From the IMG/VR virus record IMGVR_UViG_3300050034_000403, positions 1 to 64,000 of that record: 64,000 nucleotides of DNA, one strand, 5' to 3'. Origin of the DNA: a virus. Below the pieces are notes generated by a model. The model made no database searches, was not told where the DNA came from, and saw nothing but the letters and a program-made list of their open reading frames with translations. The position numbers were made by a program, and so were the translations under genes. Of the stretch, positions 1,487 to 63,372 are shown one piece after another; within the stretch, counting starts at the first letter, position 1; each line of letters starts with the position of its first letter.

Positions 1487-1537
1487 AAAAACCGTCCTTG
1501 ACCGTCTTTAACTCTAAAGCGTTATAATTGGCGCGCC
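1487..1537 (+). promoter_or_regulatory. Short leader/promoter of CRISPR-like array 1
   Basis: AAAAcCGTCCTTGA..N..AAAGCGTTATAAT block homologous to leader-proximal end of main array (63203-63244, minus); TATAAT at 1523-1528. Confidence 0.65.
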
Positions 1538-1981
1538 ATCACAACGTAGTCAAAGTGCGTCGTAAAGATGCAACAAAGCGCAATAATTTTCTATTTAGGA
1601 GCGTTGCAGTAGCAAAGCAGTCGCAGTGCATCGCACAGATGCAACATTTGCACCACTTGAAAAATGCACAGAATTGGTAGCAGTAAGACAGTTGAAGTGC
1701 ACCGAGCAGGTGCAACACCTGGAACTAATCGACCGTGTAGTCAAAGTGCATCGAACAGATGCAACGTTATGCGCCGTGACTTTGGCCAAAGGAATCACCA
1801 CATAGCAATGCTGTTGAAGTGCATCGGATAGATGCAACCGGCAATTGATCGCAGCAACTTTTGGGGATCTGGAGCACTAGATAGTTAAAGTGCATCGCAT
1901 AGATGCAACTCCATCTTCAGCGCAGTATCGTTGCTGACAGTTCCGTCGCAACGCAGTATGAGTGCATCGAACAGATGCAAC
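1538..1981 (+). CRISPR. Degenerate CRISPR array 1: 7 repeats, ~34-36 nt spacers (one shortened unit)
   Basis: Repeats ending ...AGTGCATCG-N4-GATGCAAC at 1574, 1645, 1716, 1765, 1838, 1909, 1981; ~71 nt period; same family as array at 61892-63195. Confidence 0.85.
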
Positions 1982-2047
1982 TGTTTGAGATTGGCCCGAC
2001 AAAAAATCACCGTTGCGTTTTAGCTGGCATCGGGGGATGATGCGGTC

Positions 2048-2716
2048 ATGGAACAAGTGACTGAACCTCTTTCCGAGTCCCCCGCCCCCGTTCTTCCCAC
2101 AGAAACGGATGCCAGCTCAAAAGTACGCGGCGGCAAAGCCAGAATGAACGAGCTGACGCCATCCAAACGGCGTGCGCTTGGCCGCAAAGCAGCGCAGGCA
2201 CGCTGGGGAAAAGACAAGAACCCAACAACCGACGAAAAGGCACCCCGCAAGCGCCGCAAAGCCAAGTTCGTCATTGAGCGTCCGGTGTCTGCGCCAAATG
2301 CACGACGTGAAACGCGAGTCTTCGGCATTGCGCTGACGGCTGCGGAGAAGCGTCTCGCTCGGGCGATCGAAGAGCGTGCGCGCGCGGCCTCTACCTGGGC
2401 TGTTTTGAATGCCGAGATCCCCAGTCTGCAAAGAACCATCGCGGCGCTGCGCAATCAGCAGAATCCAGTTGCAAACGGACAAGGCTACGAACCACAACTG
2501 CCAGACGGTTCCGGCTATCAATCCAATGCCGGCTACGACCTTACACGCGTGGTTTCGGACGCTCCTGTGCCCTTTGTCGCGCCGCAGCAAGCGGCACGCA
2601 CCTTAGCGGCTTCACGCGTCGGTGGCGGTGCCGTAGAGACTGTTCTTGACGATGCCTTAGACGACGAAGACAAGTTTCTCAACGGCAGCGGTATGGCTGG
2701 AGGAAATTGGCACTAA
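2048..2716 (+). CDS. Hypothetical protein with basic GGKAR...RKAAQARW motif and coiled coil
   Basis: 222 aa ORF, GGGGGA SD-like, recognisable basic helical motif. Confidence 0.6.
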   Translation: MEQVTEPLSESPAPVLPTETDASSKVRGGKARMNELTPSKRRALGRKAAQARWGKDKNPTTDEKAPRKRRKAKFVIERPVSAPNARRETRVFGIALTAAEKRLARAIEERARAASTWAVLNAEIPSLQRTIAALRNQQNPVANGQGYEPQLPDGSGYQSNAGYDLTRVVSDAPVPFVAPQQAARTLAASRVGGGAVETVLDDALDDEDKFLNGSGMAGGNWH

Positions 2717-2717
2717 C

Positions 2718-2999
2718 ATGCACACAGATTCAAAATTCGAATGGGCCGATAGAACCAAGGGCATCATTTCCGATCATGCGCGCGGGATGAAGACACTGGC
2801 GATTGCCACAAAATGGAACGTCTCGCGCGCTTGGGTGCTTCAGAACGTTAGCGAAAGCGATTATTACTCCAGAAGTAATAAAAACAAGTATGCTCTACAA
2901 AGAAAAATTCAATTTCAGCTTCTGGAAGAGTATCCGCAGACTTTCAAAGAAATCATGAGCGCCGATCTTCAATCGCCAGGATCTGAATCAAATCGCTAA
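2718..2999 (+). CDS. Small putative HTH protein
   Basis: GMKTLAIATKWNVSRAWV resembles helix-turn-helix; follows upstream ORF directly. Confidence 0.5.
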   Translation: MHTDSKFEWADRTKGIISDHARGMKTLAIATKWNVSRAWVLQNVSESDYYSRSNKNKYALQRKIQFQLLEEYPQTFKEIMSADLQSPGSESNR

Positions 3000-4532: not shown

Positions 4533-4573
4533 TTTAATATTCTCCTTAGTCCAGAATCTGGACTTTTTCGGAC

Positions 4574-8812: not shown

Positions 8813-8822
8813 GCTTTACCCC

Positions 8823-9404: not shown

Positions 9405-9415
9405 GCCCACCTCCC

Positions 9416-9491
9416 AAAACGAAAATGGCCCAAGGCCATTTCTGGTCTTGAGCCATTGCTTGTTCCGCAAATGCGGGGGCATGTCGCTCAA
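9416..9491 (-). ncRNA. Conserved late-leader attenuator-like RNA, copy A
   Basis: UUGAGC-GA-CAUGC-CC-[CCGC AUUU GCGG]-AACAAGCAAUGGCUCAAGACCA-GAAA-UGGCCUUGGGCCAUUUUCGUUUU. Confidence 0.75.
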
Positions 9492-9602
9492 AAAATCTTT
9501 TGCTTACCGTCATCTAGCAAACATTTCTCTAAAAGCGGAAAGCATCTTTCATCAGGATTATATGCCACATCCAAAAAGCCACCTACGCAAAAACGCTTTG
9601 GC

Positions 9603-10934
9603 TCAGTGGACAATGCAGACGGGGTCAGGATCGGAGCCTGTCCGATAGAGATCACCCGCCACAAGTCCCCCCGTGATAGCCGCCGCGTTATCGGCGTAGA
9701 CGGACAGGTTGGCAATATTTGGAATGCCAGGGATGATCGTATTGCCCGATGCGTCAAGCAGTGTAAGGCTGTGTACGATTGTGGTGAAGTCATTCGACCC
9801 AGAGTATTGCCGGACATAGATTGGCTCATCGCCATTATCAGCCGTGGCGATCTCCAGATAACCGGCATCAGAGTCTGTGACGCCAACCGCGATTCTTACC
9901 TTGTCAGTGCCCGAGAGGATGTCGCCCTCGACCAGCGTGAGCATCGCGTCTGTTCCCGACAGGCTGTTCAGTGTCTCCTTGGCGATAGCCACAGTGCCCG
10001 CTGTGATCTCCGACTCGACAAACGCCGTTGTCGCGATCTGCGTCGTATCCGTGCCAGCCGTCGCTGTTGGCGCGGTAGGTGTTCCCGTAAGCGCTGGTGA
10101 CGCCAGTGGCGCCAAAAGCGCCAGCTCATCCGACAATCCAGAAATATCGGCAATTGCCGGCTGAGAAAGTTGCGGAACACCATCGGTACTGATCGAGTTG
10201 ATCCACTCATGGCTAACGGCCGCAATGGCCTCCACACCACCCAACGTCGTAAGGGTGGGTGCTGGGATCACAGCGTTTACCGTGACCGCACCCACTCCAC
10301 TGGTGGGTGAAACCGTCACATTGGTTCCAGCAATAATCTGCGTGACCACGCCACCAACAAGCGGAACCAGCTCCGCCCAAAAATCCGTGCCGTCGTAAGC
10401 CACCGTCGCCGCACTACCCTGAGCAACAGGCATGGATGCAGCGGCAAGATTTCCCTGGTACGAAATCGTTCCATCGATCGGTGTCAGTGTCGCTGTGCCA
10501 GCACCAAAATTAAGGAAGACGGCATACCAAGGCACCGTGATTGCAGGGGCAGACGATCCAACGCTCAGTGTAACGGCAATCGCCGAAGCATCATCGAGAA
10601 TAATGAACTTGCCATAATCCGATTGCAACGTGGTGTAGGCCGTCACTCCTGTTTGATCGTTTACGTAGCCAATCGTGGTTGTCGCAGAATTGGTAACAAC
10701 CGTCTGCGTCCCCGTGGACGTACTGCTTGACGTGCTTGTACTCGAACTTGAACTCGAACTCGAACTTGTTGTTGACGTCGTCGCGGCTGTCAACTGGGTT
10801 TTCAAAGACGCGACGGCCTGATTCAAGTCAAGGATTCCCTGGAAGGCGTTGCGGTGCGCAACCTTTGCGCCATCGCTTTCGTTGGCAATCTCCGTTTCAA
10901 ACGGATAGCGAAATGATTCAAGATTGATTGTCAT
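9603..10934 (-). CDS. Tail fibre protein
   Basis: Contains classic LAPLASPALTGTPTAPT..GT.TTQIATTAFV fibre motif; N-terminal coiled coil plus poly-Ser/Thr linker. Confidence 0.75.
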   Translation of the reverse strand: MTINLESFRYPFETEIANESDGAKVAHRNAFQGILDLNQAVASLKTQLTAATTSTTSSSSSSSSSTSTSSSTSTGTQTVVTNSATTTIGYVNDQTGVTAYTTLQSDYGKFIILDDASAIAVTLSVGSSAPAITVPWYAVFLNFGAGTATLTPIDGTISYQGNLAAASMPVAQGSAATVAYDGTDFWAELVPLVGGVVTQIIAGTNVTVSPTSGVGAVTVNAVIPAPTLTTLGGVEAIAAVSHEWINSISTDGVPQLSQPAIADISGLSDELALLAPLASPALTGTPTAPTATAGTDTTQIATTAFVESEITAGTVAIAKETLNSLSGTDAMLTLVEGDILSGTDKVRIAVGVTDSDAGYLEIATADNGDEPIYVRQYSGSNDFTTIVHSLTLLDASGNTIIPGIPNIANLSVYADNAAAITGGLVAGDLYRTGSDPDPVCIVH

Positions 10935-15625: not shown

Positions 15626-15701
15626 AAAAACAGCAATGGCCCAAAACCATCGCTGGTCTTGAGCCATTGCTTGTTCCCGCGTAGCGGGAGGCATGTTGCT
15701 C
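15626..15701 (-). ncRNA. Conserved late-leader attenuator-like RNA, copy B
   Basis: 18-bp stem AGCAAUGGCUCAAGACCA/UGGUUUUGGGCCAUUGCU with GCGA loop then GUUUUU; upstream GAGC-AA-CAUGC plus inner hairpin. Confidence 0.8.
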
Positions 15702-18123: not shown

Positions 18124-18204
18124 AAAAACAGCAATGGCCCAAAACCATCGCTGGTCTTGAGCCATTGCTTGTTCCCCCCCATGTAGGAGAAGGCATGTTG
18201 CTCA
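18124..18204 (-). ncRNA. Conserved late-leader attenuator-like RNA, copy C
   Basis: Same terminator stem as copy B; inner hairpin UUCUCCU-ACAU-GGGGGGG; promoter TTGTCA-18-CATAAT at 18247-18218. Confidence 0.8.
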
Positions 18205-18442: not shown

Positions 18443-18481
18443 GAGCCATTGCTGGTTCCCTTAAAGGGGGGCATGCCGCTC
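18443..18481 (-). ncRNA. Partial leader RNA copy D (5' domain only, no terminator)
   Basis: GAGC-GG-CAUGCCCCCCUUUAAGGGAACCAGCAAUGGCUC then diverges. Confidence 0.6.
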
Positions 18482-18495
18482 GGCATCAGAAATTG

Positions 18496-34032: not shown

Positions 34033-34092
34033 ATCTGGTTTCCTTTCAGCGACTTACGCTGCATTCTCCGTTTCGAGAACTTTCGATTGCTC

Positions 34093-34164
34093 AAACAAAA
34101 ATGGCCCAAGCCATTTCTGGGCTTGAGCCATTGCTGATTCCCTCGAAAGGGGGGCATGCGTCTC
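34093..34164 (-). ncRNA. Conserved late-leader attenuator-like RNA, copy E (upstream of MCP)
   Basis: GAG-ACG-CAUGCC-[CCCU UUCG AGGG]-AAUCAGCAAUGGCUCAAGCCCA-GAAA-UGGCUUGGGCCAUUUUUGUUU. Confidence 0.75.
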
Positions 34165-34195
34165 GACTGATCTTCACGTCTTCAAACTGCAAAAA

Positions 34196-35731: not shown

Positions 35732-35752
35732 GATGTTTTCCTCCTTGGTGTG

Positions 35753-35830
35753 AAATAGAAATGGCCCAAGGCCATTTCTGGTCTTGAGCCATTGCTGATT
35801 CCCCAAGGAGGGGGGGCATGCCGCTCAAAA
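35753..35830 (-). ncRNA. Conserved late-leader attenuator-like RNA, copy F
   Basis: Full consensus; promoter TTGACG-17-TATAGC at 35871-35843. Confidence 0.8.
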
Positions 35831-35880
35831 GATTCTGTTAGAGCTATAAGCCGAATTCTTTTTCGCGTCAAGTGTTATTT

Positions 35881-38872: not shown

Positions 38873-39262
38873 CTATCGTCCTTTCTCATACGCTTCTGCA
38901 TGCAGATAGCTTTCGCGCCGCATTTTTGTCTTGTCCGGTCGATTGCCATACGATTCCAAATGTTGGCGCAAGAAGTCACGGTTCAGGTTATTCCGTGCGT
39001 TTGCCATCTGGTGGCGCATGTAGCTGCGCAAGTTGGCGCGGATGGGTCCTTCAATCATTTCTCGCTGCTCGTCTTCCATCTGGTACTTGTAGGCTTCCCA
39101 CTTACGCATCCGTTCCGACCACACTTCGGCTTCATGCATGGTGTTGCAGACAATCTTTTCGAAACCCGCTGGTGCCGGGAACTGTTCAGGAAGGCCCATA
39201 CGGATTTCGCCGCGAGTTCCATCGTGCCAAAACACGATTTTGGTTGCTAACTGTGCGTTCAA
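38873..39262 (-). CDS. Hypothetical protein
   Basis: TTG start with GGAGG SD overlapping terminase stop. Confidence 0.55.
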   Translation of the reverse strand: MNAQLATKIVFWHDGTRGEIRMGLPEQFPAPAGFEKIVCNTMHEAEVWSERMRKWEAYKYQMEDEQREMIEGPIRANLRSYMRHQMANARNNLNRDFLRQHLESYGNRPDKTKMRRESYLHAEAYEKGR

Positions 39263-41409
39263 TCGAGACCTCCCACAGAAACCATGTTCGAAGAACATAC
39301 GGCTTTGCTCAACGGAGGTGCTTTCTCCGTTGGCAATGCATAGCGCTTTTGCGATCTATCCGCAAGAATGTCGAAATCGTGCGCAGTAAAGAAAGATTGC
39401 GCCGCAGCACGCACGCGATCATCATGCTGACCGCTGCGATGCTCCAACTTGGAAACTCTGCCAGCCGCTGCATGCCGCTCCAGCGTTTTCAACTCTTCAA
39501 TTAACCATCTGGATGTCGGGCGATACCAGCCACCATTCACAGCTTCCGTAAAGCGCGTCATCAGGATTGGCACACTCCATACGTTGGAATACCAGCCCTG
39601 TTTTTTGCCAGAATCATCCTTGATCTTTTTGCTGTCGTAGCGACGTGGAACGTGATGCCAATGGAAGCCCATCAGCTTCAACTGGTGCTGGCATGTATCA
39701 CCTGGTCTTCCGATCTGCTCCACGCAAAACTTCACGCCACGTGGATCTTTTGCATTTTCGCCATACCAGGCGGCAATGCAAGCTGCAAATCCGACAACTT
39801 GTGCAGAGTTGATGCGGTTCGATACCAGCTCAGCCACCTGATAGTCATATTCATCGCCAAAACGGTTGCGCGTTACCGATACGCAGGTTCTGTCTTCATC
39901 CTCTTTGCCAAGACCATCTGCCGTGTCGATGCCGCAACTGTAGGTGTATCCAGGGTTGGGCTCTTCATATACCAGCAGCTTGTCAAAGGTTTCCAGCTCC
40001 ACATCTTCGTCAATCGGAAGGAGAGGAACCAAAACCCAGTCATAGCGTTGTCCGCGATCCGATTTCCATGTCACGCGGATATGCGCTTTGTCGTAATCAA
40101 TCAATGGCTCTGGTGGCTCAAAACCATCGTCGATGGAATCACCAGTAATGGCGTAGGCTTGCACCTGCTTCTTTCTTTCCTTGGTGTCGCCTTGCACTTC
40201 ATAAATGTTGTCTTCGATCTCCTGAATCGTTTCCACATCGAACACGCTGTCATGCACACCTGTCAGCGCTTCATAGTCGTCAGCCGGCATCTGCGCAAGC
40301 CAAATCTTCTGACTGTGATTTTTGCAAGATTTGGCGTAATTGAATTCCCAAAACCACTGCTGCTCCAGCGGCATCCGCCAATCTTTTCCAACAATCCGTG
40401 ACAAAAACGGCGTATTGCGAATGTAGGACTCGGCACGGATCACATGCTTGCGCGTTGCTTCCATGCGCTTCTTGTAAAAGTCTTCTGGAACCGGGAACTG
40501 ACGAATCCATGCCTTTTCAGGGTAAAGATCCGTCGCCATTGCCCAAGGAATAAATACAGGGCAAAGATCATGCAATCCTTTGGGGAAGTCTTCTTTCGCA
40601 GCGCGCCACGTCTCGGCCAACCAGCCGGTGTTTCCACCACCTGTGCCTTCAAACACCATGAAGAGGTTGGGAGTGGCGTGCGTGGCGCGCAACAGGCCTT
40701 CTTCAATCACCTTCTTAGGCTTGGGGATATCCGCCAACTCCGAAACGTGAATTAATGTGGGAGTCCAACCTTGCGCGATACCCGTTGCCTGCATACCAGA
40801 TTGAATGGACAACACAGATCCGTTATCGAATGAGCCTTTGGGTCCACGGCGCGGCACCAGCCACCAGGGGCATTGGTTGTAGGCAATATCCAGGATGCGA
40901 CCGATCAGCTCGGACTTATCCGACTGCACCGAGGCCATCACAGCCTGAGTGTGCGGAATGAACAACATCCTTTGAAGAAACTTCAGAGCGGTTTTTGTGG
41001 TGATGCCCACCTGCCGCGCTTTCAAAATCAAAAGGCGAATAGCAACTTGCTTTTCGTCGAAATCGGCGATTACGGAATCGAAAACTTCTTGCGATTTCCG
41101 GTTTTTGAATTTGAAAATCTCGCCGCCTTCGTTGCAGACGTAGGCGTAGCAATCGTCAAAGTAGTTGCTATCGAGGGCACACATCACCTGCTCGTTCTCT
41201 ACCCACCGCCAAATTTCCTTTTGGCGCTTTTGCGTGATGGGACGCACAAGGGAGATATACGAGGACTTCGAGTTTGATTCGATTTTTACGATGGAATCGA
41301 TGTAGTGCTTGAATTCTTCCACCTGGGCAAACGTATGAGGGGTAGGCATCCACCCCTCACGCGCGGCGAACTTGTCCAGGTTCTGTACGATAATCTTTTC
41401 GGAATACAT
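39259..41409 (-). CDS. terL: Terminase large subunit
   Basis: ILKARQVGITT Walker A, IHVSE Walker B, FEGTG, GIDTADG and HDDRV RNase H-type nuclease motifs. Confidence 0.9.
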   Translation of the reverse strand: MYSEKIIVQNLDKFAAREGWMPTPHTFAQVEEFKHYIDSIVKIESNSKSSYISLVRPITQKRQKEIWRWVENEQVMCALDSNYFDDCYAYVCNEGGEIFKFKNRKSQEVFDSVIADFDEKQVAIRLLILKARQVGITTKTALKFLQRMLFIPHTQAVMASVQSDKSELIGRILDIAYNQCPWWLVPRRGPKGSFDNGSVLSIQSGMQATGIAQGWTPTLIHVSELADIPKPKKVIEEGLLRATHATPNLFMVFEGTGGGNTGWLAETWRAAKEDFPKGLHDLCPVFIPWAMATDLYPEKAWIRQFPVPEDFYKKRMEATRKHVIRAESYIRNTPFLSRIVGKDWRMPLEQQWFWEFNYAKSCKNHSQKIWLAQMPADDYEALTGVHDSVFDVETIQEIEDNIYEVQGDTKERKKQVQAYAITGDSIDDGFEPPEPLIDYDKAHIRVTWKSDRGQRYDWVLVPLLPIDEDVELETFDKLLVYEEPNPGYTYSCGIDTADGLGKEDEDRTCVSVTRNRFGDEYDYQVAELVSNRINSAQVVGFAACIAAWYGENAKDPRGVKFCVEQIGRPGDTCQHQLKLMGFHWHHVPRRYDSKKIKDDSGKKQGWYSNVWSVPILMTRFTEAVNGGWYRPTSRWLIEELKTLERHAAAGRVSKLEHRSGQHDDRVRAAAQSFFTAHDFDILADRSQKRYALPTEKAPPLSKAVCSSNMVSVGGLD

Positions 41410-41533: not shown

Positions 41534-41599
41534 GACGTTCCTCCTTGGAACTTACGATCCCGCCAACTTGGTTGTTGCGGGAGGGTTGCAATAGGCCGG

Positions 41600-41675
41600 A
41601 AAACAGAAATGGCCCAAGGCCATCTCTGGTCCTGAGCCATTGCTTGTTCCCGCTTGAGCGAGGGGCATGTGTCTC
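41600..41675 (-). ncRNA. Conserved late-leader attenuator-like RNA, copy G (head of terminase module)
   Basis: GAGA tetraloop variant, inner hairpin CUCGC-UCAA-GCGGG; TTGACG at 41717-41712 upstream. Confidence 0.75.
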
Positions 41676-41726
41676 GGTAATTGCTTTACATTTATACCGA
41701 ATTACATCTTGCGTCAAGCGTAACTT

Positions 41727-45637: not shown

Positions 45638-46250
45638 GTTGCGTCTATTCGGCGCACTGTAGAAGCTGTTTGATTGTTGCGCTTATCCAGCGCACTATGA
45701 CTATCTTGCAACCTTTTTATAGCCAAAAAGCCGTGATGATTCTCGTGTTGCATCTACTCGATGCACTGAAACTGCCTTGTGACTTTGTGCTATTCCTTGA
45801 CGCGTTGCGCTTTCTCGGCGCACTCATACGTCTATAAATATCCCTTGTGTATTATTGCGCTTATTCAGTGTATTGTTGCGCTTATCCAGCGCACTCCTAC
45901 TTTGTCGCACATGTTGCATCTCTCCGATGCACTTTGACTGTACACCCCTACCTATCCATGTTGCATCTGCTCGATGCACTCATACTGTGCTCCTCAACCT
46001 ATCCATGTTGCGCCTATGCGGTGCACTGAAACCGCATTACTGCGAAATCCAAGGCTCACGTACGTTGCATCTTCTCGATGCACTTCAACCAGTCTGCTAT
46101 ACAGCAGACAAAAACGAATGCCAATGGAGGTTGCATCTGTTCGATGCACTCATACGGATTTGGTACGGGATGCTGTTGTTGCGCTTATCCAGCGCACTAG
46201 AACATCTTGTCAGCTCATTCTTCAGGTTGCGCCTGCTCGACGCACTCATA
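45638..46250 (-). CRISPR. Compact atypical CRISPR-derived array 2: ~13 repeat hairpins with short spacers
   Basis: GTTGC-N11-GCACT cores at 45638, 45676, 45747, 45804, (45854), 45875, 45913, 45960, 46007, 46064, 46130, 46178, 46226; two keep the full 37-nt repeat. Confidence 0.8.
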
Positions 46251-46299
46251 TGACACCTCAATACTTTGCGCCAAGCCCCCGCGTTGTCAACAAATTTCT

Positions 46300-46827
46300 T
46301 TAGCTCCGCGATGCCAGAATTTTGGTTGCCTCAGTCAATGTAATCATAAGCGTTTGTGGATTGATCGGCGAAGCGATGAAGCCGTATTTCTCGTAGAACT
46401 GTTTTGCATCCTTAGAAATTGCATTTACCAAAACCGCACGAATGCCGGCAATCTCAGCAGCCTGCAAAGTGCGCAAAACCGCATCCCGCAAAAGATCCGC
46501 CCCAATCCCGCGATGCTGAAAGTGTTCATCCACAGCCAGTCGTCCGATCAGCATCACGGGCACTGGATCGGGCATGTTGCGCTTGATGCGTGTGGGTGCC
46601 TCGACATGTGCCACAGCACCAGTCGCCAGCGCATAAAAACCAACGACATGACCTTCTGAGCACACCACTTTAGTACGCGATGCTCCATTCTTCTCGTTTT
46701 GAAGTGCCCGCGTCTTCAACCACAGATTGAGAGATGATTCGCCACAGCAGAATTGCGTAAGATCATGTTCCACTGTCAGCTTTTCTGGAGCGGTAATACG
46801 GATCTTGGACGCCTCTACTCCTCCCAC
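46300..46827 (-). CDS. GNAT acetyltransferase toxin (TacT/AtaT-like)
   Basis: F.CG..SLN.WL; PDPVPV.LIGRLAVD...Q.RGIG..LL.DA; FYEKYGF. Confidence 0.9.
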   Translation of the reverse strand: MGGVEASKIRITAPEKLTVEHDLTQFCCGESSLNLWLKTRALQNEKNGASRTKVVCSEGHVVGFYALATGAVAHVEAPTRIKRNMPDPVPVMLIGRLAVDEHFQHRGIGADLLRDAVLRTLQAAEIAGIRAVLVNAISKDAKQFYEKYGFIASPINPQTLMITLTEATKILASRS

Positions 46828-47099
46828 GATGGTTTCCTCGCTAGCAGCTTTGCCAGTTTTGGGTTGGACTTGGGAGGATTGTCTAGCATGTCATTGAAGC
46901 GTTGGAACTCTTCTTTCCCGAGACGGAAGTAGCAGCGATCAAGCAAAATCGCTTCCGCTTCCCTGCACGCCGCATCCAGCATGAAATCCGTGCGGTTCCT
47001 TCCCAGCACTTCTGCTGCACTATCAATTAATGTCTTTTGCCGCAGATTGGCACGCAAATTGATGTTCGTAGCCCGCAATTCAGCAACGACAGAACCCAT
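46815..47099 (-). CDS. DUF1778 RHH antitoxin (TacA/AtaR-like)
   Basis: INLR....QK.LI..AA..LG..RTDFML.AA..EAE..L; F..ML.NPP..N..L. Confidence 0.9.
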   Translation of the reverse strand: MGSVVAELRATNINLRANLRQKTLIDSAAEVLGRNRTDFMLDAACREAEAILLDRCYFRLGKEEFQRFNDMLDNPPKSNPKLAKLLARKPSWEE

Positions 47100-47161
47100 G
47101 ACCCACCTCCTGAATGTATACACAATGAGCGTACAGCATCGTGCGCACAATGTAAAGCGCC

Positions 47162-49830: not shown

Positions 49831-49866
49831 GGCGCATAGCAGGCCATAGGCCAAGGATTACGAATT

Positions 49867-52546: not shown

Positions 52547-52551
52547 CGGCT

Positions 52552-53226: not shown

Positions 53227-53833
53227 CGTGATTGTTTACGTCGATCATGTTGACGGTTTTTTCAACGGTATGGTTTGGTGCAGGCGCAAGGATGGCACGC
53301 CGATACTGCTAGAGATTGAGGATTACCAGAGTCTAGCGTCTCTAGTGGGCAAAGTTATATCTGTCGGAGTGGCGCCCGATGGCTTGAGTACGTTTGACCC
53401 TTGCGTGTTGGATACGTTGCCCGAGTGGGCGCAACGTTGGGCAGCGAGATAACCGGCCCGCCCGTGGGCATAGAGTACGCGGGCAAGGATGGCAGCATGC
53501 TGAACACTGAAACCAATACCCCGGCGATGGAAGCGCGCATTTTGCGCGCAGTGAATACGCAATTGGTGAACCCGGCCCGCTCCTACGTGGAATTCAGCGC
53601 AGTTTTCGAGCATGGCCAGTGGTGGATTACGCATCTACCGAGTGGCGCGCAGTGGTCTGTCTGCGATGCGTCCGGCCCGAATGGATTCGACTTCGAGCAG
53701 GTAACGCTCGGGAGCGAAGAGTAGGCGCATAGTCCAGATTCCGGACTCGCTTATGATAGCGGTCACTTTTTTGATAGGTGCCCAAACTTTTCACCTTTAG
53801 CGGCGGCACAGCCGCAAGAATGGAGCTTTCACC

Positions 53834-54145
53834 ATGGCACAGGAACCGAAACAGATTATCGCAATTCCGGAGTTGGACAGCGCGGCAGGCGCGGCACAGA
53901 TGGAAATCAGCACCGAAAAGTATGACGACGGCCGCCTTGTTTCCGCCGCTCACCTGCATTTTGTGAAAGATGGCTCACTCACGTTTAGAGTGTACGGCGA
54001 TTTTCGTAAGGTCCTTTTGCGCACCGTTGCCCGCGCAACGCAGAAGAATCTGAACACGCAACACGCCAGCGTGTTCACGCCTGCAGCCATCGACGCATTG
54101 AAAGCGGAAGCGCTCGCCTTCTACGCCGAAAAGAGGAAAAAGTGA
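53834..54145 (+). CDS. Hypothetical protein
   Basis: Follows boundary motif; GGAG SD. Confidence 0.55.
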   Translation: MAQEPKQIIAIPELDSAAGAAQMEISTEKYDDGRLVSAAHLHFVKDGSLTFRVYGDFRKVLLRTVARATQKNLNTQHASVFTPAAIDALKAEALAFYAEKRKK

Positions 54146-54277
54146 AAATTCAAGCTTTGCGCTTTGGCTTGCCTCTTTCCATTGCGCTGTACGCGCTAGG
54201 CTATGTCCTAGTCCGGCATTTTCTCCAGCACTAGCACCCTGCCCGCCCGTGGGCAGATACGCGGGCATAGAGGGAGC

Positions 54278-54547
54278 ATGAAAGCTCATTTTAACTACCC
54301 TGTGGAATTCCAGACACACCCCGATTACAGGGCACATTCCGGACAAGTCGTGGAAATTGTGCGTGCACTAAGCAGATTAGAAGCAGACTTTCATGACGAC
54401 CCGCAACTTGAACGCATGTTCAAAATTCGCGCGGCCGATGGATGGCAGGGCGATGCTTTTGAAAGCGAACTTTCGCGCCCGAAGAATATCACGGTGAAAG
54501 AGTTTGCAAAATTCTGCGATGGCCTTGTCAGAGACGCAGCGAAGTAA
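54278..54547 (+). CDS. Hypothetical SH3-like protein
   Basis: GQVVEIVR.L...MFKIR.ADG...DAF..EL; GGGAG SD. Confidence 0.55.
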   Translation: MKAHFNYPVEFQTHPDYRAHSGQVVEIVRALSRLEADFHDDPQLERMFKIRAADGWQGDAFESELSRPKNITVKEFAKFCDGLVRDAAK

Positions 54548-54813
54548 CAGCTCCGCCCGTGGGCTAGTACGCGGGCAAGGAACGGCGATGTATAACGACA
54601 CGGTTTTACTCCTTGCTCTAGGCGTTGTGGGTTTTTGGTGCTGGCGACTGGACGAGCATCTGCACACGACAAAAGAAAGCATTCTCGAACGCTTGGACGA
54701 GCTGGAAAAGCAACTCAAGGAAAGCCGGAAAGCGTAATCTAACAGAGTCCAGATTCCAGACTTTGATAGGCAACAGATTTTTAACGGCGGCACAGCCGCA
54801 AGGAGAAAAGAGT

Positions 54814-55266
54814 ATGTCTGCATTTATGGTCAGCAAAGAACACATTGACGCAATTATTGCCGTAGTGGCACAGGGTCCGGCACAGTCGGAACAAGACCGG
54901 CAGCAGTGGGAAGATTCCATGAAATACGGTATTCTCCCGGACTCTTCAGATCCGCTTGGCGAGTTGGGAAATACGCTCATCCGCGAGAATCTGGCCAGCA
55001 TCAATGCGCGCTATCCCGATACGGTTAACCACCCCGAGCGCGTACCCGGCCCGTGTGAGCCTTATTGGCTGGTCCCGTACGTCTTCCACAGCCCGAAGCG
55101 CATCCCTACCGTTGTTGAGGCATTCAAGCTGATTCATTCCTATCAGTATCAGAGCTGCGAACATAACGGTTGGGAAACCTCGCAGGCAAAGCGCACTTGT
55201 GAAAAGTTGATTAACCTCTTGATTATGGCGCTGCCCGGCTACAAAAGCGCCAAGTGGGAAATCTAG
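54814..55266 (+). CDS. Hypothetical protein
   Basis: MSAF.VS..HID; L..EN..S..ARY; Y.YQSCE...W..S.A motif family of mobile elements. Confidence 0.65.
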   Translation: MSAFMVSKEHIDAIIAVVAQGPAQSEQDRQQWEDSMKYGILPDSSDPLGELGNTLIRENLASINARYPDTVNHPERVPGPCEPYWLVPYVFHSPKRIPTVVEAFKLIHSYQYQSCEHNGWETSQAKRTCEKLINLLIMALPGYKSAKWEI

Positions 55267-55334
55267 GCATATTTGATAGGCGACCAATTCACGCGTAACA
55301 GTCGGGTTTTTCCCCGGCAGAATCGAGGAGCACC

Positions 55335-55733
55335 ATGGAATTTCAATTAAAAATCGAATTAGGCAATGACGCCATGCAGACGGCTGACGACATTCGCGCA
55401 GCCGTAAAGGACGTGGCCAAGTATCTCAAGGATTGGCGCCCCGGCGAGCTGCCCGAAGCTGGGGACAATGCGCCTATCCGCGACGTAAACGGGAACACTG
55501 TGGGCGGGTGGGAGATAGTCAAGCACGCGCCCGCGTCTAATCCGCTCGAAGATCCAAGCAACCTGGCCACCGTTCTAGCTGCCTTGCGCCTGTTCCAACG
55601 CACCTATGACGGCTACGCCGCAAAGCACATCTATGATGCGTTCCCGGATCACTTCACGGCCGCCGACGGCAGCACTATCGAGCCGCTTAGCACCGATGAC
55701 ATTGACGCGCTTTGTGTGGATCTGAACGCGTAA
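55335..55733 (+). CDS. Hypothetical protein
   Basis: GAGGAG SD; IRDVNGNTVG and T.LAALR motifs. Confidence 0.6.
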   Translation: MEFQLKIELGNDAMQTADDIRAAVKDVAKYLKDWRPGELPEAGDNAPIRDVNGNTVGGWEIVKHAPASNPLEDPSNLATVLAALRLFQRTYDGYAAKHIYDAFPDHFTAADGSTIEPLSTDDIDALCVDLNA

Positions 55734-56053
55734 ACTTGCCCTTTTGATAGGCGACCAACTTTTTCCAACTATCCGGAATTTCCGGAGGCATGAGGTAACA
55801 CAATGAAAACGAAAACCTATGTTTTTTCTGTGACTCTGAAAGGCAAAGGCGACAACCCGGACGACGCCTGGAAGGATGCAGTCGACGCATTTTCACTCGA
55901 CGCCGGCATTACGCCCGACGCCTACGAAGAAGAGGACGAAGACAGCGACGACGACGAAGACAGCTAGCGCACCCCATTTGATAGGGGACACTTTTTTCAT
56001 GACAATCACGATTTTTTAGCAGGGGCTCAGCCCCAAGAATGGAAGAAAACACC

Positions 56054-57049
56054 ATGGCAACCATGACCATGCCCGCCGTCCGCACCGCCACCACCCCCAC
56101 CAGCAAACTCGTTATCCGTTTCCGCACCTGGGCCGATGCCCTGCAGCCGAAGATCGAGCACGCAGGCCGACCGATGACGCAGAACCCGACGCCGAAGCGT
56201 CAACGGGAATATCAGGGCCGGATGCACGATTGCCGCAACCTGGAGCGCACACAGCGGGCACTGCGCGCCCTGGCCGATGCGCTCGAAGCCGGAACGGTTC
56301 CGCCCGAGCTGGCCGCGCTTACCAAGAAAGCTGAAATTGAACACATGGTGCATAAGGGAATCGATTGCGGCAGGGGCGGCTATTATTCCGTGATGGAATC
56401 GGACGACTACGCCGAGACTTCGCCAGCGGCGCGGCTCCTGCAAGGCATGATCGAGGGCAATTCCGCCGAGCGCACCGAACGCGAACGGCTGCGCAAGATT
56501 GACGCGCTCGCGGCCGAAATCAAGCTCAGTAGCTACCCTGGCTATTTCCCCACGCAGAAACCCGTGATTGAAATCATGCTGCGCCGTGCGCACATTCAGC
56601 CCGGCATGAGGGTATTAGAGCCGGAAGCCGGTAGCGGAGACATTGCCGATGGCGTGAGCGCGGCGGTCCCTGGCGTCATTTTGGAAGTGATCGAGCCGGT
56701 TTTCAAGCTCCGCGAGCTGCTGGAGCTGAAGGGCTACAAGCTGGTAGGCGAGGACCTGATGCAGCTTTCACGCTCCGAGCTGGGCCAGTATGACCGCATT
56801 GTTATGAACCCGCCTTTTGAGCGGCAGCAAGACCTCGACCACATCCGCCGCGCCTACAATCTGCTCGCCCCGCGCGGTATCCTGGTCTCTGTCTTGAGTC
56901 CAAGTTTTGAATTCCGCTCAGACCGCAAGAGCACCGATTTTCGCGCGTGGCTGGATGAGGTAAGCGCCACGTGGGAAAACCTGCCCGAAGGATCTTTCAA
57001 GGCCAGCGGTACAGGCGTCAGCACGCGGCTTTTAGTCGTTGAGCGATAG
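56054..57049 (+). CDS. SAM-dependent (probable DNA adenine) methyltransferase
   Basis: YFPT, VLEP.AG.G.IA, D.IVMNPPF, LP.G.F..SGT.V. Confidence 0.85.
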   Translation: MATMTMPAVRTATTPTSKLVIRFRTWADALQPKIEHAGRPMTQNPTPKRQREYQGRMHDCRNLERTQRALRALADALEAGTVPPELAALTKKAEIEHMVHKGIDCGRGGYYSVMESDDYAETSPAARLLQGMIEGNSAERTERERLRKIDALAAEIKLSSYPGYFPTQKPVIEIMLRRAHIQPGMRVLEPEAGSGDIADGVSAAVPGVILEVIEPVFKLRELLELKGYKLVGEDLMQLSRSELGQYDRIVMNPPFERQQDLDHIRRAYNLLAPRGILVSVLSPSFEFRSDRKSTDFRAWLDEVSATWENLPEGSFKASGTGVSTRLLVVER

Positions 57050-57425
57050 GAGACTCATGGGCTACGCGCAGGCGATGAAATGGCAACGCACCCACCGCAA
57101 GGGAACTCGGCAGCCGGTTCTGATGTCCACCGGCTCCGGGTTCTGGCCCGCTCATTCCTGGCTGGAAAGAATCTTCTGGCCATACCTCAAACGGTGCGAG
57201 GCGGCTGGTATCGAGCCGATGGAATGCCAAGCCTATTACAATGCAACGCTCAGCGGCGGCGCAGGCGACCCGCGCCTCTCTGAACAGGATTAACACCCCA
57301 TTTTGATAGGGGACACTTTTTTCACGCATAGACGCGTTTTTAACTAGGACCCAGCCCTAGCCCAAACGTATAACCAAATTTATGCTCAAATGGGTGCTAT
57401 AGTTGGTTCACGGAGGAAACAAGGC

Positions 57426-57623
57426 ATGAGAGCAACCGTATCCCTTGACGACAATCTGTTACGAACAGCAGAAGAGTACAGCGGCTTGACAGAAAGGGCA
57501 GCATTGATTCGCGCCGCATTAAAGTCACTGATTGCGAGAGAAGCCGGTCGTAGACTTTTGGCTTTGGCCGGAACCGCCCCGGACATTGAGGACGTGCGGA
57601 GATTGCGAGTAGCTGAACAGTGA
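57426..57623 (+). CDS. vapB: VapB antitoxin
   Basis: MR.TV.LDD.LL..A....G..E...L.R.AL..LI.RE..RRL..L.GT. Confidence 0.85.
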   Translation: MRATVSLDDNLLRTAEEYSGLTERAALIRAALKSLIAREAGRRLLALAGTAPDIEDVRRLRVAEQ

Positions 57624-57991
57624 TTCTCGCAGACACTTCAATCTGGATAGCCATGTTTCGAACTGGCGCTTACAGTGCAGAGCTGCACACATTGATTGCC
57701 AATGATCAACTCTGCACGCACCCTTTTTTGATTGCGGAGCTAGCACTCGGCACATTGCCAGAACGCAAAAAGACACTGGCGTATCTTGACCAGCTAATTT
57801 CTATTCCTCCCGTGCAATTGGAGGACATTCGGTACATGATCGAGGCACGGGGATTTGCTTCAAAGGGAATCGGCTTAACGGATGCGCATTTAATTGCATC
57901 TTGTTTGGCAATTCCGGGAACTCTGCTTTGGACTCTTGATCGCAAACTGGGCAATGTCGCTGAATCTCTGAACATTCGCGCTACTCTCTAA
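57620..57991 (+). CDS. vapC: VapC PIN-domain toxin
   Basis: ILADTSIWI, HP...ELALG, GIG.TDAHL.AS, LWTLD. Confidence 0.9.
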   Translation: MILADTSIWIAMFRTGAYSAELHTLIANDQLCTHPFLIAELALGTLPERKKTLAYLDQLISIPPVQLEDIRYMIEARGFASKGIGLTDAHLIASCLAIPGTLLWTLDRKLGNVAESLNIRATL

Positions 57992-58011
57992 CACCCCAAG
58001 GAGCCAACACC

Positions 58012-58563
58012 ATGAGCAAGCCTGAAGTATCCCGACGCAACGAAGACGGAGACCGCATCGCCGTCATTCACTCATACGCGCCTGGAGACGGTAACCTGTC
58101 TTTTGTGGCCGCCGATGTCGAGCATCCTCACAGCGCCGTTTCTCCCAGTCCAACCCGCGAAGAGTGCGAGGCCGCGTGTCCCGATGGCTGGGAACTCTAT
58201 CAGGAAGGGCCGTCCTGGCGCGCTCGCAGGTTCGCGACTGCCTCGCCAATTACCGCACCGATTCTGCTCCCGCTTCCGGCGCTGAAGGAAAAAGACTTTT
58301 CCATTGAAGCCGACGCACAAGGCTACCGGATCATTTACAAGGGTCACAACATCGGCGGAGCCGGTACTCTCGGCAAATTCAAAGGAGCGGGAAGACCACG
58401 CGCCGGTTTTCCAAACCGCGCAGTCGAACAGACGGCGGATTACCACCAACAGGCGCAATCTGAAATAAAGAGTCTCCTTGCCGGTCATGGACAGGCACGC
58501 TTTCAAACCATCATCGACGAAATCGACGCTGAACCAGTCCCGGACTTCAAGCAACCCTCATAG
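58012..58563 (+). CDS. Hypothetical protein
   Basis: AAGGAG SD. Confidence 0.55.
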   Translation: MSKPEVSRRNEDGDRIAVIHSYAPGDGNLSFVAADVEHPHSAVSPSPTREECEAACPDGWELYQEGPSWRARRFATASPITAPILLPLPALKEKDFSIEADAQGYRIIYKGHNIGGAGTLGKFKGAGRPRAGFPNRAVEQTADYHQQAQSEIKSLLAGHGQARFQTIIDEIDAEPVPDFKQPS

Positions 58564-58642
58564 CACGTTTTGATAGGGGACACTTTTTCAACGACAGAAA
58601 CGCATTTTAACGGGGGCTCAGCCCCAGAAAGGCTTTTGCCTT

Positions 58643-59224
58643 ATGCCTCTTTTGGCTACCGTTCCTACTCCTCCCACGCCGATCAGCGCACCGGAACCAG
58701 AACGCCACAGAGGCCGACCAGCCCTCACAGATGAAGAGCGCGAAGAGCGGCGACTTGCACGGAACAAAGCACGGCGCGAACAGCGCCAAGCCGCGCACGT
58801 TGCCGTAGAACCCCCGCCGCCTGCCGTGGAAGTCGAAGAACCCCAGCCCACTCCACCACCAGCGCCACCACACGTTTACTTTGCGCTGGGCCAACGTGCC
58901 CGCGCTTTGCTGGGCTTTGGTCTAGGGGCATTCGTGCCCCTGGCCAGCTACATGGAAATTCACTTTGAAGTGGGTCACCACCCGCAGCTCTGGTTTCTCG
59001 TGGCCGGGGCGCTTGCTTACTCCGCGATCAGCGTCTACACCTGGGCCGTCGAGGCCTTTCATTACCAGCTCAAGGCACTCGGCTTTGTCGTGCTGCTTGA
59101 AGGCACCATGACGTTCTGCAGCATCCTCTGGCTGAGTTTGGCCGGGCTGGCAATTCTCATGATCCTGAACGCCATCACCGCCGCTGTTACGTTGCAGGCG
59201 CGCAGTCCGGATTCCGGACTCTAG
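58643..59224 (+). CDS. Membrane protein (4 TM) with basic/Pro-rich N-terminus
   Basis: RGRP motif, Pro linker, four hydrophobic helices. Confidence 0.6.
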   Translation: MPLLATVPTPPTPISAPEPERHRGRPALTDEEREERRLARNKARREQRQAAHVAVEPPPPAVEVEEPQPTPPPAPPHVYFALGQRARALLGFGLGAFVPLASYMEIHFEVGHHPQLWFLVAGALAYSAISVYTWAVEAFHYQLKALGFVVLLEGTMTFCSILWLSLAGLAILMILNAITAAVTLQARSPDSGL

Positions 59225-59355
59225 CAAATCGCTCGGCGGTGCGAATACAAGTTGACGCATTGATACGACAGGCGCAAAGTATTGGATAGGCCCTATTTGA
59301 TAGGGGACCAAGTTTTTTTGAATACTCCGGCAATTCAAAGAACCGAGGCGAAAGA

Positions 59356-59571: not shown

Positions 59572-59586
59572 CGAAAGCGAGACTCA

Positions 59587-60192: not shown

Positions 60193-60432
60193 ACATGCAG
60201 ATCATCTTGCGGCAACTCGACAGCGACGACTTTGGAAAGATGCTGAAAGTCTGCAAAAGCTCACGCGAACGGTTTTACCTGGAAGCCGCGCGCATTAATC
60301 CAAACTTTGAATACCACATCGATCTGCCCGGCCCCGATGGCCCTACCAAACCCGTCGACATGCAAACGTGGCTTGCCGACAAAGAAAGGTTCCCCGACGA
60401 CTGAGCAAAATGATGGCACAATGGGAGGTCAA

Positions 60433-61140
60433 ATGACGGAAAAAGTACACTTTCGCAAGGATCTGACAGGCAAAGTCTTTGGTCGGCTTACTGTAACGGG
60501 ATACTCGCATCAAGCCGGAAAGTCATCGGTTTGGAACTGCCTTTGCGTCTGCGGAAATACGACTCAAGTTCGCCAAAGCAATCTTACGAGGGGCGGCGTT
60601 GTTTCCTGTGGTTGCCGCAGAAAAGAAATTCAAAATCACATCAAGTTCTATTCTCCAGAATCTGCTCTTACGCATGGCTGCGCTCGCACACGGTTAGGAA
60701 AAAGGACTGCTGTCTATACGATATGGTGTGGGATGAAACGGCGTTGTTCTTCACCAAAATGCAAATGCTTTTCGTACTACGGCGGACGTGGAATCAAAGT
60801 CTGCAAACGATGGGAAAAGTTTGAAAACTTCCTGGCGGATATGGGTAAGCCAAAACCGGGAATGACACTTGACCGCTTTCCGGATAAAGACGGCGATTAT
60901 GAACCGACAAATTGCCGATGGGCTACATGGAAAGAGCAGGCAAACAATCAACGCCCCCGTTCATTTTTCATTGACAAGCCTGAACATGCTGACATTTTGC
61001 AGAAAATCTTATCGCTGCACTCTTTGGGCAAAACTACCAGAGATATTGCAGACGTGCTGAATTCTATGAAAATTATGTCACCCCGTGGAAAATGCTGGTG
61101 GGGATCAGGCATTGATCGTATCTTGCGCAATCATCGATAG
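60433..61140 (+). CDS. HNH-family endonuclease with C-terminal recombinase-type HTH
   Basis: DLTGK.FGRLTV, W.C.C.CG, SCGC, YGGRGI.VC.RW, NCRWAT..EQ.NN. Confidence 0.85.
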   Translation: MTEKVHFRKDLTGKVFGRLTVTGYSHQAGKSSVWNCLCVCGNTTQVRQSNLTRGGVVSCGCRRKEIQNHIKFYSPESALTHGCARTRLGKRTAVYTIWCGMKRRCSSPKCKCFSYYGGRGIKVCKRWEKFENFLADMGKPKPGMTLDRFPDKDGDYEPTNCRWATWKEQANNQRPRSFFIDKPEHADILQKILSLHSLGKTTRDIADVLNSMKIMSPRGKCWWGSGIDRILRNHR

Positions 61141-61147
61141 GAGAAAA

Positions 61148-61828
61148 ATGGAAGCTGTTTCATATATGCGGTGTTCTGGCGAAAGCCAAGTTCTCGGCGA
61201 TACGTGGGAACGTCAGCGCGCAGTTATCGTTAAATATGCCGCCGCCAATGAAATTGCAATTGTCGATGAATTCCGGGATGAAGGCGTAACAGGCAAGATG
61301 GAGTTGGAAGGACGTGCCGGTCTTTCAGCCTGCATACAATTCATCCGTGAAAAGGGAATCAAGCTTGTTTTGGTTGAGTCCAGCGACAGATTGGCCCGCG
61401 ACATGATCGTGGCAGAAGTTGTTGTACGCGAGTTTCAAAAGATTGGAGTTCGCGTCATTTCTGCGTCTGGCGGTATCGATCTAACCGAGGGAGACGATTC
61501 CAACCCCACGGCTAAACTAATTCGTCAGATTCTAGCGGCCGTCGCCGAGTTTGATCGCTGCGTAATCGTACTTAAGCTACGCGGTGCGCGCCAGCGCAAA
61601 AAGGCTAGGGGAGAACGAGGAGATGGCCGGCACGCCTTTGGAGAAAAGCCTGGAGAAGCCGTGGTTCTCGCACAGATTCGTGCGTTAAAGGCCCAAGGAG
61701 AGACGATCAGGACCATTGCCGACACCTTGAACGCCGCCGCCATTCCAACGCGCATGGGGGGCACCTGGAAGGCCGGGACGGTGGCAAAGATCCTTGCTCG
61801 TGAGAAATTTCACAGCGCTTGCGCGTGA
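61148..61828 (+). CDS. Serine recombinase (resolvase/invertase family)
   Basis: YMRCS, D.G.TG...R.GL, V...DRLARD, AEF.R..I..KL..AR; C-terminal IA..LN....TR.G..W. Confidence 0.9.
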   Translation: MEAVSYMRCSGESQVLGDTWERQRAVIVKYAAANEIAIVDEFRDEGVTGKMELEGRAGLSACIQFIREKGIKLVLVESSDRLARDMIVAEVVVREFQKIGVRVISASGGIDLTEGDDSNPTAKLIRQILAAVAEFDRCVIVLKLRGARQRKKARGERGDGRHAFGEKPGEAVVLAQIRALKAQGETIRTIADTLNAAAIPTRMGGTWKAGTVAKILAREKFHSACA

Positions 61829-61891
61829 ATTACGCGTTTTCATCGGAATTAGGGTATTTGAAAGCAAAAAGGTAGTTGAGCTATATCAAGA

Positions 61892-63195
61892 GTTGCATCT
61901 ATGCGATGCACTTCAACTGCATTGCTACCGATATGGTAGCGCTGTCGCTACGGATTTCGCGTTGCACTTATCCAGTGCACTTCAACTGCATTACTACGCT
62001 GGTGGGTCCTTGTAAGTTGCATCTACGCGATGCACTCAAACTGCTTTGATGCTTGCTACCTTTTGGCACATTTCCATTTTTCCAGTAGTTGCATCTATGC
62101 GATGCACTGAGACTATTTTGCGACACGGAGTTGAATCAAGAAGCAATAAGCCTGTTGCATCTATGCGATGCACTTTGACTGCTTTGCTATCCCACTAATA
62201 AGCCTTTGCAGGATCATTTTCCCAGTTGCATCTGCTCGATGCACTTTAACTACCTTGCGACCATGTGAGAATGCTGGTGGCTCTCTCTTGACGAAGTTGC
62301 ATCTGCTCGATGCACTCAAACTACATTGCGACACGGCTACGGAAGCCGTCTTGCTGCTGCTATGAATGTTGCATCTGTTCGATGCACTTTAACTACCTTG
62401 CGACGACTGTTTATGCTTTTGAACTCACACACTACGACCGTTGCATCTGTTCGATGCACTGAAACTACATTGCGACAGCAGAAAAAATCGAGAAATGATT
62501 CCGATACCATGTTGCATCTGCTCGATGCACTGAAACTACCTTGCGACGAAACCTGGAAAACCTGTCCACCGGGACCGTAATAGTTGCATCTGCTCGATGC
62601 ACTAAAACTATCTTGCGACGTTCGACTTCAGCCAAGAGAGACATGACCGCGAGTGTTGCATCTGTTCGATGCACTTAAACTATCTTGCGACCCTATAATT
62701 TGTCCAGACACTAGCGTCCACAACCGTTGCATCTGTTCGATGCACTGAAACTGCCTTGCGACGCATGTACTCCCAAAGCGTGTACTCTTGATGCAAGTTG
62801 CATCTGTTCGATGCACTGAAACTACATTGCGGCTTGGTGAGCCCTTGGAAAGTGTTAGCAGGTCATCAAGGTTGCATCTGTTCAATGCACTGAAACTATC
62901 TTGCGGCATGATCGAGCAGTTGAGCAATACAAGGTGCGATACGCGTTGCATCTGTTCGATGCACTTTAACTACCTTGCGACACGAAATTGCGGGACTCTT
63001 TTACCAGGTGATGGATGTTGCATCTGTTCGATGCACTGAAACTACATTGCGACCTAAACATCACCATGCAGGACAAGCTCGACCTCCAGTTGCATCTGTT
63101 CGATGCACTGAAACTACATTGTGACTCGCCACCTTCGGAAGAAACAAGAAGACCAGAAGTTGCATCTGTTCGATGCACTGAAACTACATTGCGGC
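61892..63195 (-). CRISPR. CRISPR array 3: 19 repeats/18 spacers, consensus GTCGCAATGTAGTTTCAGTGCATCGAACAGATGCAAC (37 nt)
   Basis: ~71-72 nt period, mostly 33-37 nt unique spacers; degeneration increases leftwards (trailer), leader on right. Confidence 0.97.
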
Positions 63196-63372
63196 TGCGC
63201 TCATTATAACGCTTTGCGATTGAAGAAGATCAAGGACGTTTTTCGCGAACCTCGCAAATCTGCGCTCTTCTAGTTGGGATGCTCGATACAATGCCCTCAT
63301 TATCTCCTTCAAAATCATTTTCTTACGCCTTGCGCGAACCTCCCGCCTTTTTCCGGCCGCTTAGGGTTCGCG
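63196..63372 (-). promoter_or_regulatory. CRISPR leader
   Basis: CGCGAACC/GGTTCGCG inverted and direct motifs at 63244, 63333, 63365 as seen in I-C-type leaders; TATAAT at 63208-63203. Confidence 0.8.

Follow-up and report, generated by a model that had tools for sequence, protein, structure and literature searches.

What does a phage do with several CRISPR arrays when no cas gene accompanies them? The question is raised by a 64,000-nucleotide (nt) stretch of viral DNA, hereafter the window, that comprises bases 1–64000 of a single IMG/VR virus record from peat (IMGVR_UViG_3300050034_000403; 89,228 bp). An original prediction, made from the letters of the window, had described three dispersed arrays of one repeat family without a cas operon and proposed that the phage either hijacks host Cas machinery or encodes a compact effector elsewhere. 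Following these arrays over the whole contig and into related phages, we put the probability at roughly 60% that they serve a phage-borne, type V-M-like system whose effector gene most likely lies just past base 89,228, beside the fifth array. Phage-borne type V is the most likely assignment because relatives of this phage encode a Cas12m-like protein at the very point where the contig breaks off.

Five arrays with one structured repeat

Repeat finders and a structure-aware scan located one repeat family at five sites on the contig (Table 1); three of them lie inside the window, and these three are far beyond chance. The three arrays described before are thereby confirmed, their number being an understatement for the contig as a whole. 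Arrays 3, 4, and 5 show the spacing generally expected of CRISPR, with a 37-nt repeat, a period of 70–74 nt, and unique spacers; array 1 mostly follows this pattern and array 2 does not.

Read in transcript sense, the repeat is GTCGCAAGGTAGTTTCAGTGCATCGAACAGATGCAAC, with GTnGCAAnGnAGTTTnAGTGCATCGAACAGATGCAAC as the consensus: a 6-bp stem (positions 19–24 with 30–35) encloses a 5-nt loop and is followed by AC. Across 58 units, 99.1% of the stem cells were paired and 25 were double-change cells, whereas 0 of 500 shuffles scored as high; the paired fraction, unlike the double changes, is inflated because our unit picker demanded at least 5 of 6 pairs. Compensatory stem variants include GCATC/GATGC, GCACT/AGTGC, and GCGCT/AGCGC. 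Polymorphism of the repeat is unusually high, with 54 distinct sequences among the 58 units.

This architecture resembles that of type V-M. Published Cas12m repeats (Ms: GUAGCAACGCCUAGCUCAGGGGCUCGAAAACUGAGAC) have in common with it a 5′ GTAGCAACGC, a 3′ stem-loop, and a terminal AC (PMC11013384 supplement). Compared with the Ms and Tf Cas12m repeats, the phage repeat has the same layout—36–37 nt, a conserved 5′ end (GTAGCAAYGC), and a 3′ stem-loop, closed by G and A and then followed by AC, directly before the spacer—and the type V-like layout read from the window was right. A literature search with the repeat string turned up nothing relevant.

Are these repeats CRISPR at all? That they are instead structured RNA or DNA elements scattered over the phage genome, for instance terminators or sites of processing or recombination, strikes us as hardly credible. 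Their polymorphism would suit such elements, and an Rfam scan returned a tRNA as its single match, with no CRISPR-DR family at gathering score. However, this reading is already contradicted by the same repeat family standing beside a Cas12-like gene and Cas4-Cas1-Cas2 in relatives, and it sits poorly with the regular spacing and the unique spacers, mostly of 32–37 nt, in arrays 3, 4, and 5, and with a host spacer of the same repeat family that matches this phage (both described below).

Relatives encode a Cas12m-like protein where this contig ends

Six-frame family searches of the whole 89-kb contig gave no match to Cas1, Cas12u1, or the Cas12f-like TNB zinc-ribbon domain, nor did the relatives' effector, used as a query, find a translated match. 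The earlier statement that neither Cas1 nor an effector is recognizable in 64 kb is thus borne out for the entire contig, and an effector in the remainder of the contig, which the prediction had thought worth looking for, did not turn up before base 89,228. An effector hidden among the large unannotated open reading frames (ORFs) was considered and rejected, as Pfam, PHROGs, and PADLOC yielded nothing Cas-like, with no PADLOC match for any of ten such ORFs. Those of 694, 716, 1548, and 485 amino acids (aa) sit by synteny in a conserved virion-gene block; the other large ones had no homologue in the relatives compared.

An exact-pattern hairpin scan recovered 32 loci in IMG/VR, many on multi-array contigs, and 27 loci in genomes, several of them from Acidobacteriaceae or Acidobacteriales, including Telmatobacter bradus and Terracidiphilus. 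Two related phages, one seen twice (G003/G005) and the other G004, are collinear with the contig, their capsid, portal, and terminase proteins being 82–95% identical, and each has a Cas12-like ORF of 745–753 aa. In G003/G005 and in locus L093, the gene order is integrase, RecT, PD-(D/E)XK nuclease, array, effector. On our contig the nuclease is followed by array 5, where the sequence breaks off; the relatives' effector would come next. At the nucleotide level, the trailer of array 5 aligns with that of G005 at 70% and with that of a further relative, G002, at 86%. The same repeat family stands beside the Cas12-like gene in relatives with or without Cas4-Cas1-Cas2: in G004 and L094, Cas4c, Cas1c (I-C type, E = 5e-142), and Cas2c lie between effector and array.

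How much of the phage is missing? The contig has no terminal repeats and is 82% complete by CheckV estimate, implying a full genome of ~109 kb or so, of which 89 kb are covered. In the likely source run (peat, ~750x depth), a contig reaches 63 nt beyond the end and contributes one more spacer and another repeat; extension by Logan contigs gave 63 bases and no more. The compact effector outside the window that had been proposed was therefore the right option insofar as syntenic relatives have a Cas12m-like gene of 737–753 aa by the array-5 orthologue, but the gene was not recovered for this phage.

Judged from sequence and modeled fold, the relatives' effector is a Cas12m-like, single protein with predicted RuvC-like and TNB domains. 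It matches the TNB domain PF07282, and its best hidden Markov model match is PADLOC Cas12u1, the old name for V-M (E = 2e-26 to 2e-28), over the C-terminal half, leaving ~390 N-terminal residues outside the profile match. The best sequence matches in the PDB are Cas12m proteins. An AlphaFold model built with 30 homologues (mean predicted local distance difference test score, 84) had Cas12m2 (8hhl, E = 3.9e-19) and GoCas12m (8pm4, 3.6e-17) as top Foldseek matches, at 13–14% identity; Cas-lambda followed at rank 16 and lower, with template modeling (TM) scores of ~0.27. Effector genes in the fetched viral loci encode 737–753 aa, and 30 aligned family members span 694–785 aa, in contrast to the ~600 aa of V-M effectors. 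At 90% identity, the family falls into more than 100 clusters, for which databases offer at most the name "zinc ribbon domain-containing protein"; at 50% identity, 46 clusters with E < 1e-30 are followed by a tail of 500–680-aa proteins that match the C-terminal half only. Most members have D-E-D as their RuvC triad, but the clade nearest this phage has E-E-D; the first carboxylate (alignment position 447 of the first sequence) is E rather than D in 9 of the 30.

In four lineages, a DUF7873 gene precedes the Cas12m-like gene on the same strand, 0.7–4 kb upstream of it (Table 1). This gene, which is absent from our contig, may belong to the system as an accessory.

How might such a system operate? 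Each array would be transcribed in the orientation that puts the hairpin of the repeat immediately 5′ of the spacer, and a single Cas12m-like protein of ~750 aa would process the array transcripts without a trans-activating CRISPR RNA (tracrRNA). A tracrRNA is unlikely because no anti-repeat was seen, although the search for a repeat-like unit of opposite sense near the relatives' effector genes is a weak test. The guides would then be used against competing mobile elements, by DNA binding and silencing as in Cas12m or possibly by cutting. Cas12m proteins themselves process their precursor CRISPR RNA (crRNA), and they bind DNA but do not cut it (PMC11013384, PMC10442227). The RuvC residues D/E-E-D cannot decide on cleavage because published D-E-D Cas12m variants do not cut either (PMC11013384). 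Array 3 carries the leader type found beside Cas4-Cas1-Cas2 in relatives.

An effector of its own or one supplied in trans?

Several observations weigh against the view that this phage possesses the effector. The protein itself was never seen in this phage. The last spacer of array 5 and the next one, recovered from reads, are both absent from IMG/VR and JGI metagenome contigs, and the array-5 repeat variant is absent from IMG/VR. The phage's spacers had no match in any fetched locus or in G002–G005; three that we tried in IMG/VR (A1_4, A3_1, and A3_2) were absent there, and for those of array 3 no protospacer turned up in 301 Acidobacteriaceae genomes. Neither Cas1 nor Cas2 is present on this contig or in G003/G005, and growth of array 3 would therefore need an integrase in trans. 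Finally, G002, the closest relative of the right arm, shows the order nuclease, array, leader, endolysin, and no effector.

The main rival, which we consider rather unlikely, is therefore an array-only phage, the guides of which would be loaded on a Cas12m-like effector that a related prophage in the same cell or, rarely, the host provides in trans. Such a phage would explain why 89 kb of an estimated ~109 kb hold no effector. It also fits G002, a 26.9-kb record with 28 units that corresponds to the stretch from the array-3 leader to array 5 of our contig. IMG/VR calls G002 (L076/L077) complete via a 95-bp direct terminal repeat. However, we rejected it as proof of a closed array-only element, which would be unsafe because that repeat lies inside an array leader; the leader is possibly duplicated, and G002 probably represents a fragment with a copy of the leader at either end, not a closed circle. 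Further support comes from bacterial genomes: that of T. bradus, which is complete, carries 6+2 units of the repeat family and neither effector nor Cas1, and an Acidobacteriales metagenome-assembled genome (MAG) has a five-unit orphan chromosomal array between nuo genes. Together with G002 and the present contig, these cases indicate that arrays of this system often occur apart from an effector. Yet three lineages have the effector directly beside the array-5 orthologue, and our contig stops inside array 5. Moreover, an effector homologue was found in 1 of the 301 sampled Acidobacteriaceae genomes, and that copy is fragmentary, which argues against a host supply. The effector being mainly phage-borne, the hijacking of host Cas machinery suggested earlier is weakened as well. 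We infer, on the strength of synteny, that the phage more probably has an effector gene of its own beyond the contig end.

Protospacers are scarce: among 219 spacers pooled from all fetched arrays, one had a protospacer. A spacer of the MAG's orphan array matches this phage at 30 of 33 positions (contig 75742–75774) and a G002-like contig at 31 of 33, both protospacers having CACATCC as their 5′ flank.

A graded series of arrays

The window had been read as holding a graded series, from an acquiring array to fixed guides, and as a description this holds. Array 3 has an intact leader and full-length units; its 14 leader-side repeats are nearly uniform, the five on the trailer side are degenerate, and neighboring repeats differ at 1–5 positions on the leader side and 6–12 on the trailer side, where two gaps measure 18 and 29 nt. 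Array 1, with the leader remnant and degenerate 5′ halves noticed before, keeps ~50 nt of leader. Overall, neighboring repeats differ at ~4 positions in arrays 3 and 5, ~6 in array 4, ~11 of 37 in array 1, and 15 in array 2.

The ~50 nt next to the first repeat are common to arrays 1 and 3 (CCTTGAyC, 19 nt, TATAAT); a consensus promoter scan missed these leader promoters because the gap is 19 nt. The upstream motif GCGAGGTTCGCG is present in the array 3 leader and absent from that of array 1. Among relatives, it turns up again in the leader that serves G002's 22-unit array and in leaders next to the effector gene (G003/G005) or next to cas2 (G004). The remark that the leader motifs resemble those of I-C systems agrees with the Cas4c/Cas1c/Cas2c type of the adaptation genes in two relatives.

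The three trailer-side spacers of array 5 recur in strains sampled by two other peat studies and those on the leader side are different, which is the usual polarity of a growing array; the nuclease gene beside it differs by ~5% in these strains. Array 1 looks fixed because the junctions of its spacers 4 and 6 recur in contigs from the same two studies. Overall, array 3 looks recently extended, and arrays 1 and 2 look frozen.

Array 4 adjoins the preceding gene directly. Its upstream sequence and the 5′ half of its first repeat can form a strong 13-bp hairpin (z = −6.4; Table 1), recalling leader-repeat hairpins reported as blocking extraneous crRNAs (PMC13187072).

What, then, is array 2? It had been described as leaderless and cut down to hairpins. 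It is indeed an irregular cluster of hairpins, but some units retain a recognizable 5′ half. Considered on its own, array 2 may be an RNA decoy, sponging a Cas12m-like effector in the manner of RNA anti-CRISPRs (Racr RNAs), or a crRNA-like repressor with short guides—possible, in our view, if on balance doubtful. Its spacing is irregular, with spacers of 1–20 nt in 8 of 12 gaps. Compensatory changes have preserved the hairpins even as the 5′ halves decay, many stems are of GCGC type, and this distinct stem variant is enriched here. A module of GCGC-stem repeat, 20-nt spacer, and GCATC-stem repeat recurs unchanged in three other phage contigs (L039, L045, and L059), and locus L034 holds a cluster syntenic with array 2. 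Precedents for either role exist in Racr RNAs (PMC10651486) and phage crRNA-like regulators (bioRxiv 10.1101/2024.10.29.618823). Measured against Racr RNAs, array 2 offers hairpin units with spacers of 1–20 nt; the matching effector is rare in hosts (1/301). On the other hand, a decaying array that loses spacers by deletion would look the same, and no target is apparent: the short spacers of arrays 1–3, including those of ≤20 nt in array 2, had neither a meaningful match nor a seed match of the CreA/crlRNA type in the phage contig, in the four relatives G002–G005, or in the regions upstream of five relatives' effector genes. Two 15-nt self-matches, considered as regulatory targets, were discarded as being at chance level.

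These results bear on the division of labor between immunity and regulation proposed for the arrays. Arrays 1 and 2 do look fixed, as such a division would have it, but the lack of matches for their short spacers leaves the regulatory half without a target, and the split is a conjecture.

Directly upstream of array 2, and on its strand, a 111-aa ORF and a GNAT acetyltransferase gene (Pfam Acetyltransf_7, E = 1.7e-10) make up a toxin-antitoxin-like pair (Table 1).

The uncoupling of arrays and effectors also invites a broader and, we think, improbable scenario. Guides and effectors might be decoupled across the community, with effectorless arrays of phages, possible satellites, and hosts competing for few phage-borne Cas12m-like proteins, array 2 acting as decoy or regulator, and repeat polymorphism arising from recombination between elements instead of from Cas1-Cas2. 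If true, an incoming phage could find its own effector directed against it by an orphan array of the host.

Relation to known systems

With type V-M (Cas12m), the system inferred here has in common the repeat architecture and the closest profile and fold matches of the relatives' effector. It differs in the size of this protein (737–753 aa versus ~600 aa), its low identity to solved Cas12m structures, the E-E-D triad in the clade nearest the phage, and its carriers, temperate phages that have as many as five arrays scattered over the genome. Furthermore, V-U systems typically come without adaptation genes (PMC11013384), whereas two of the relative lineages have Cas4-Cas1-Cas2 of I-C type.

Cas-phi (Cas12j) and Cas-lambda offer a second comparison. 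They, too, are single phage-encoded effectors of ~700–800 aa, expected to process their own guides, often lacking Cas1 and Cas2, and thought to act against competing elements. However, they are not the closest relatives of the effector described here, as seen in the fold search, and they stem from huge lytic phages, whereas the phage studied here is temperate, encodes an integrase, and has a genome of roughly 100 kb. Virus-borne orphan mini-arrays, solitary repeat units, and Racr RNAs resemble our case in being viral repeat units without nearby cas genes, array 2 amounting to a string of such units. In contrast to them, arrays 3, 4, and 5 are long (9–19 units or more) with full-length, unique spacers, and the matching effector is itself phage-borne rather than part of a mimicked host system.

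CRISPR systems carried by phages have been described mostly in huge lytic phages and in Vibrio phage ICP1. The present case points to temperate phages of ordinary size, infecting Acidobacteria—a dominant yet poorly studied group in soil and peat—and equipped with up to five arrays and an enlarged Cas12m relative. If the binding-only mode of Cas12m holds here, a prophage could silence its rivals without DNA damage. The effector family, nameless in the databases searched, ~750 aa in size, and probably tracrRNA-free, may interest tool builders. Lastly, the uncoupling of arrays and effectors, together with the unusually variable repeats, poses a testable question as to how such arrays are built and shared.

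The carrier phage and further features

The carrier is a tailed temperate phage of Acidobacteriaceae, from peat. Large terminase and tail fibre genes lie inside the window, and integrase, primase-helicase, RecT, PD-(D/E)XK nuclease, DNA methylase, and antirepressor genes beyond it on the same contig (Pfam, PHROGs). Coordinates of these and other features are collected in Table 1.

Table 1. Arrays, leaders, and other features (contig numbering, its bases 1–64000 being the window, unless a locus or chromosome is named)
Feature	Position	Strand	Details
Array 1 short leader	1487–1537	+	promoter-like TTGACC 1498–1503, 19-nt gap, TATAAT 1523–1528
Array 1	1538–1981	+	7 units; hairpin-bearing 3′ halves, degenerate 5′ halves; spacers 34–36 nt and one of 12 nt
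Array 2	45638–46262	-	12 hairpin units and at least 1 degenerate; spacing 38–72 nt, spacers 1–36 nt
Array 3	61892–63195	-	19 units of 37 nt; spacers mostly 32–37 nt
Array 3 leader	63196–63310	-	TATAAT 63203–63208, TTGATC 63228–63233, motif GCGAGGTTCGCG 63244–63255
Array 4	66481–67222	-	11 units; outside the window
Hairpin at array 4	67186–67262 (L001 4186–4262)	-	13 bp
Array 5	88621–89228	-	9 units; stops exactly at contig end; outside the window
PD-(D/E)XK nuclease	87238–88287		followed by array 5, then the contig end
Large terminase	39259–41409		Pfam and PHROGs
Tail fibre	9603–10934		Pfam and PHROGs
Radical SAM and glycosyltransferase-like genes	1–1484	+	
Toxin-antitoxin-like pair	46300–47150	-	
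Primase-helicase	78498–81158 (L002 2498–5158)	-	886 aa
TTTGATAGGGGACAC copies	53752–59335	+	six copies
AATGGCCCAAGGCCAT element copies	9415–9499, 15626–15689, 18124–18187, 18443–18482, 34090–34174, 35751–35835, 41599–41683		
DUF7873 gene	L090 980–1744; L092 8475–9338; L094 5443–6252; L095 5194–5949		
T. bradus orphan array	chromosome 1031940–1034154 (L015/L020)		ordinary chromosomal genes as neighbors

The window opens with a radical SAM gene, cut by the contig start, and a family 2 glycosyltransferase-like gene; array 1 starts directly after the stop codon of the latter. Compared with the 577-aa open frame of its homologue in G002, the primase-helicase is longer, and a weak Hint-domain match at residues 172–261 makes an intein possible.

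Two further repetitive elements were noted. The first, 50–80 nt long and of the form AATGGCCCAAGGCCAT...GAGCCATTGCT...GGGGCATG, occurs in six to seven copies between late genes and is unrelated to the CRISPR repeat. The second, TTTGATAGGGGACAC followed by a T-run, is spread along a plus-strand gene block and appears promoter- or operator-like.

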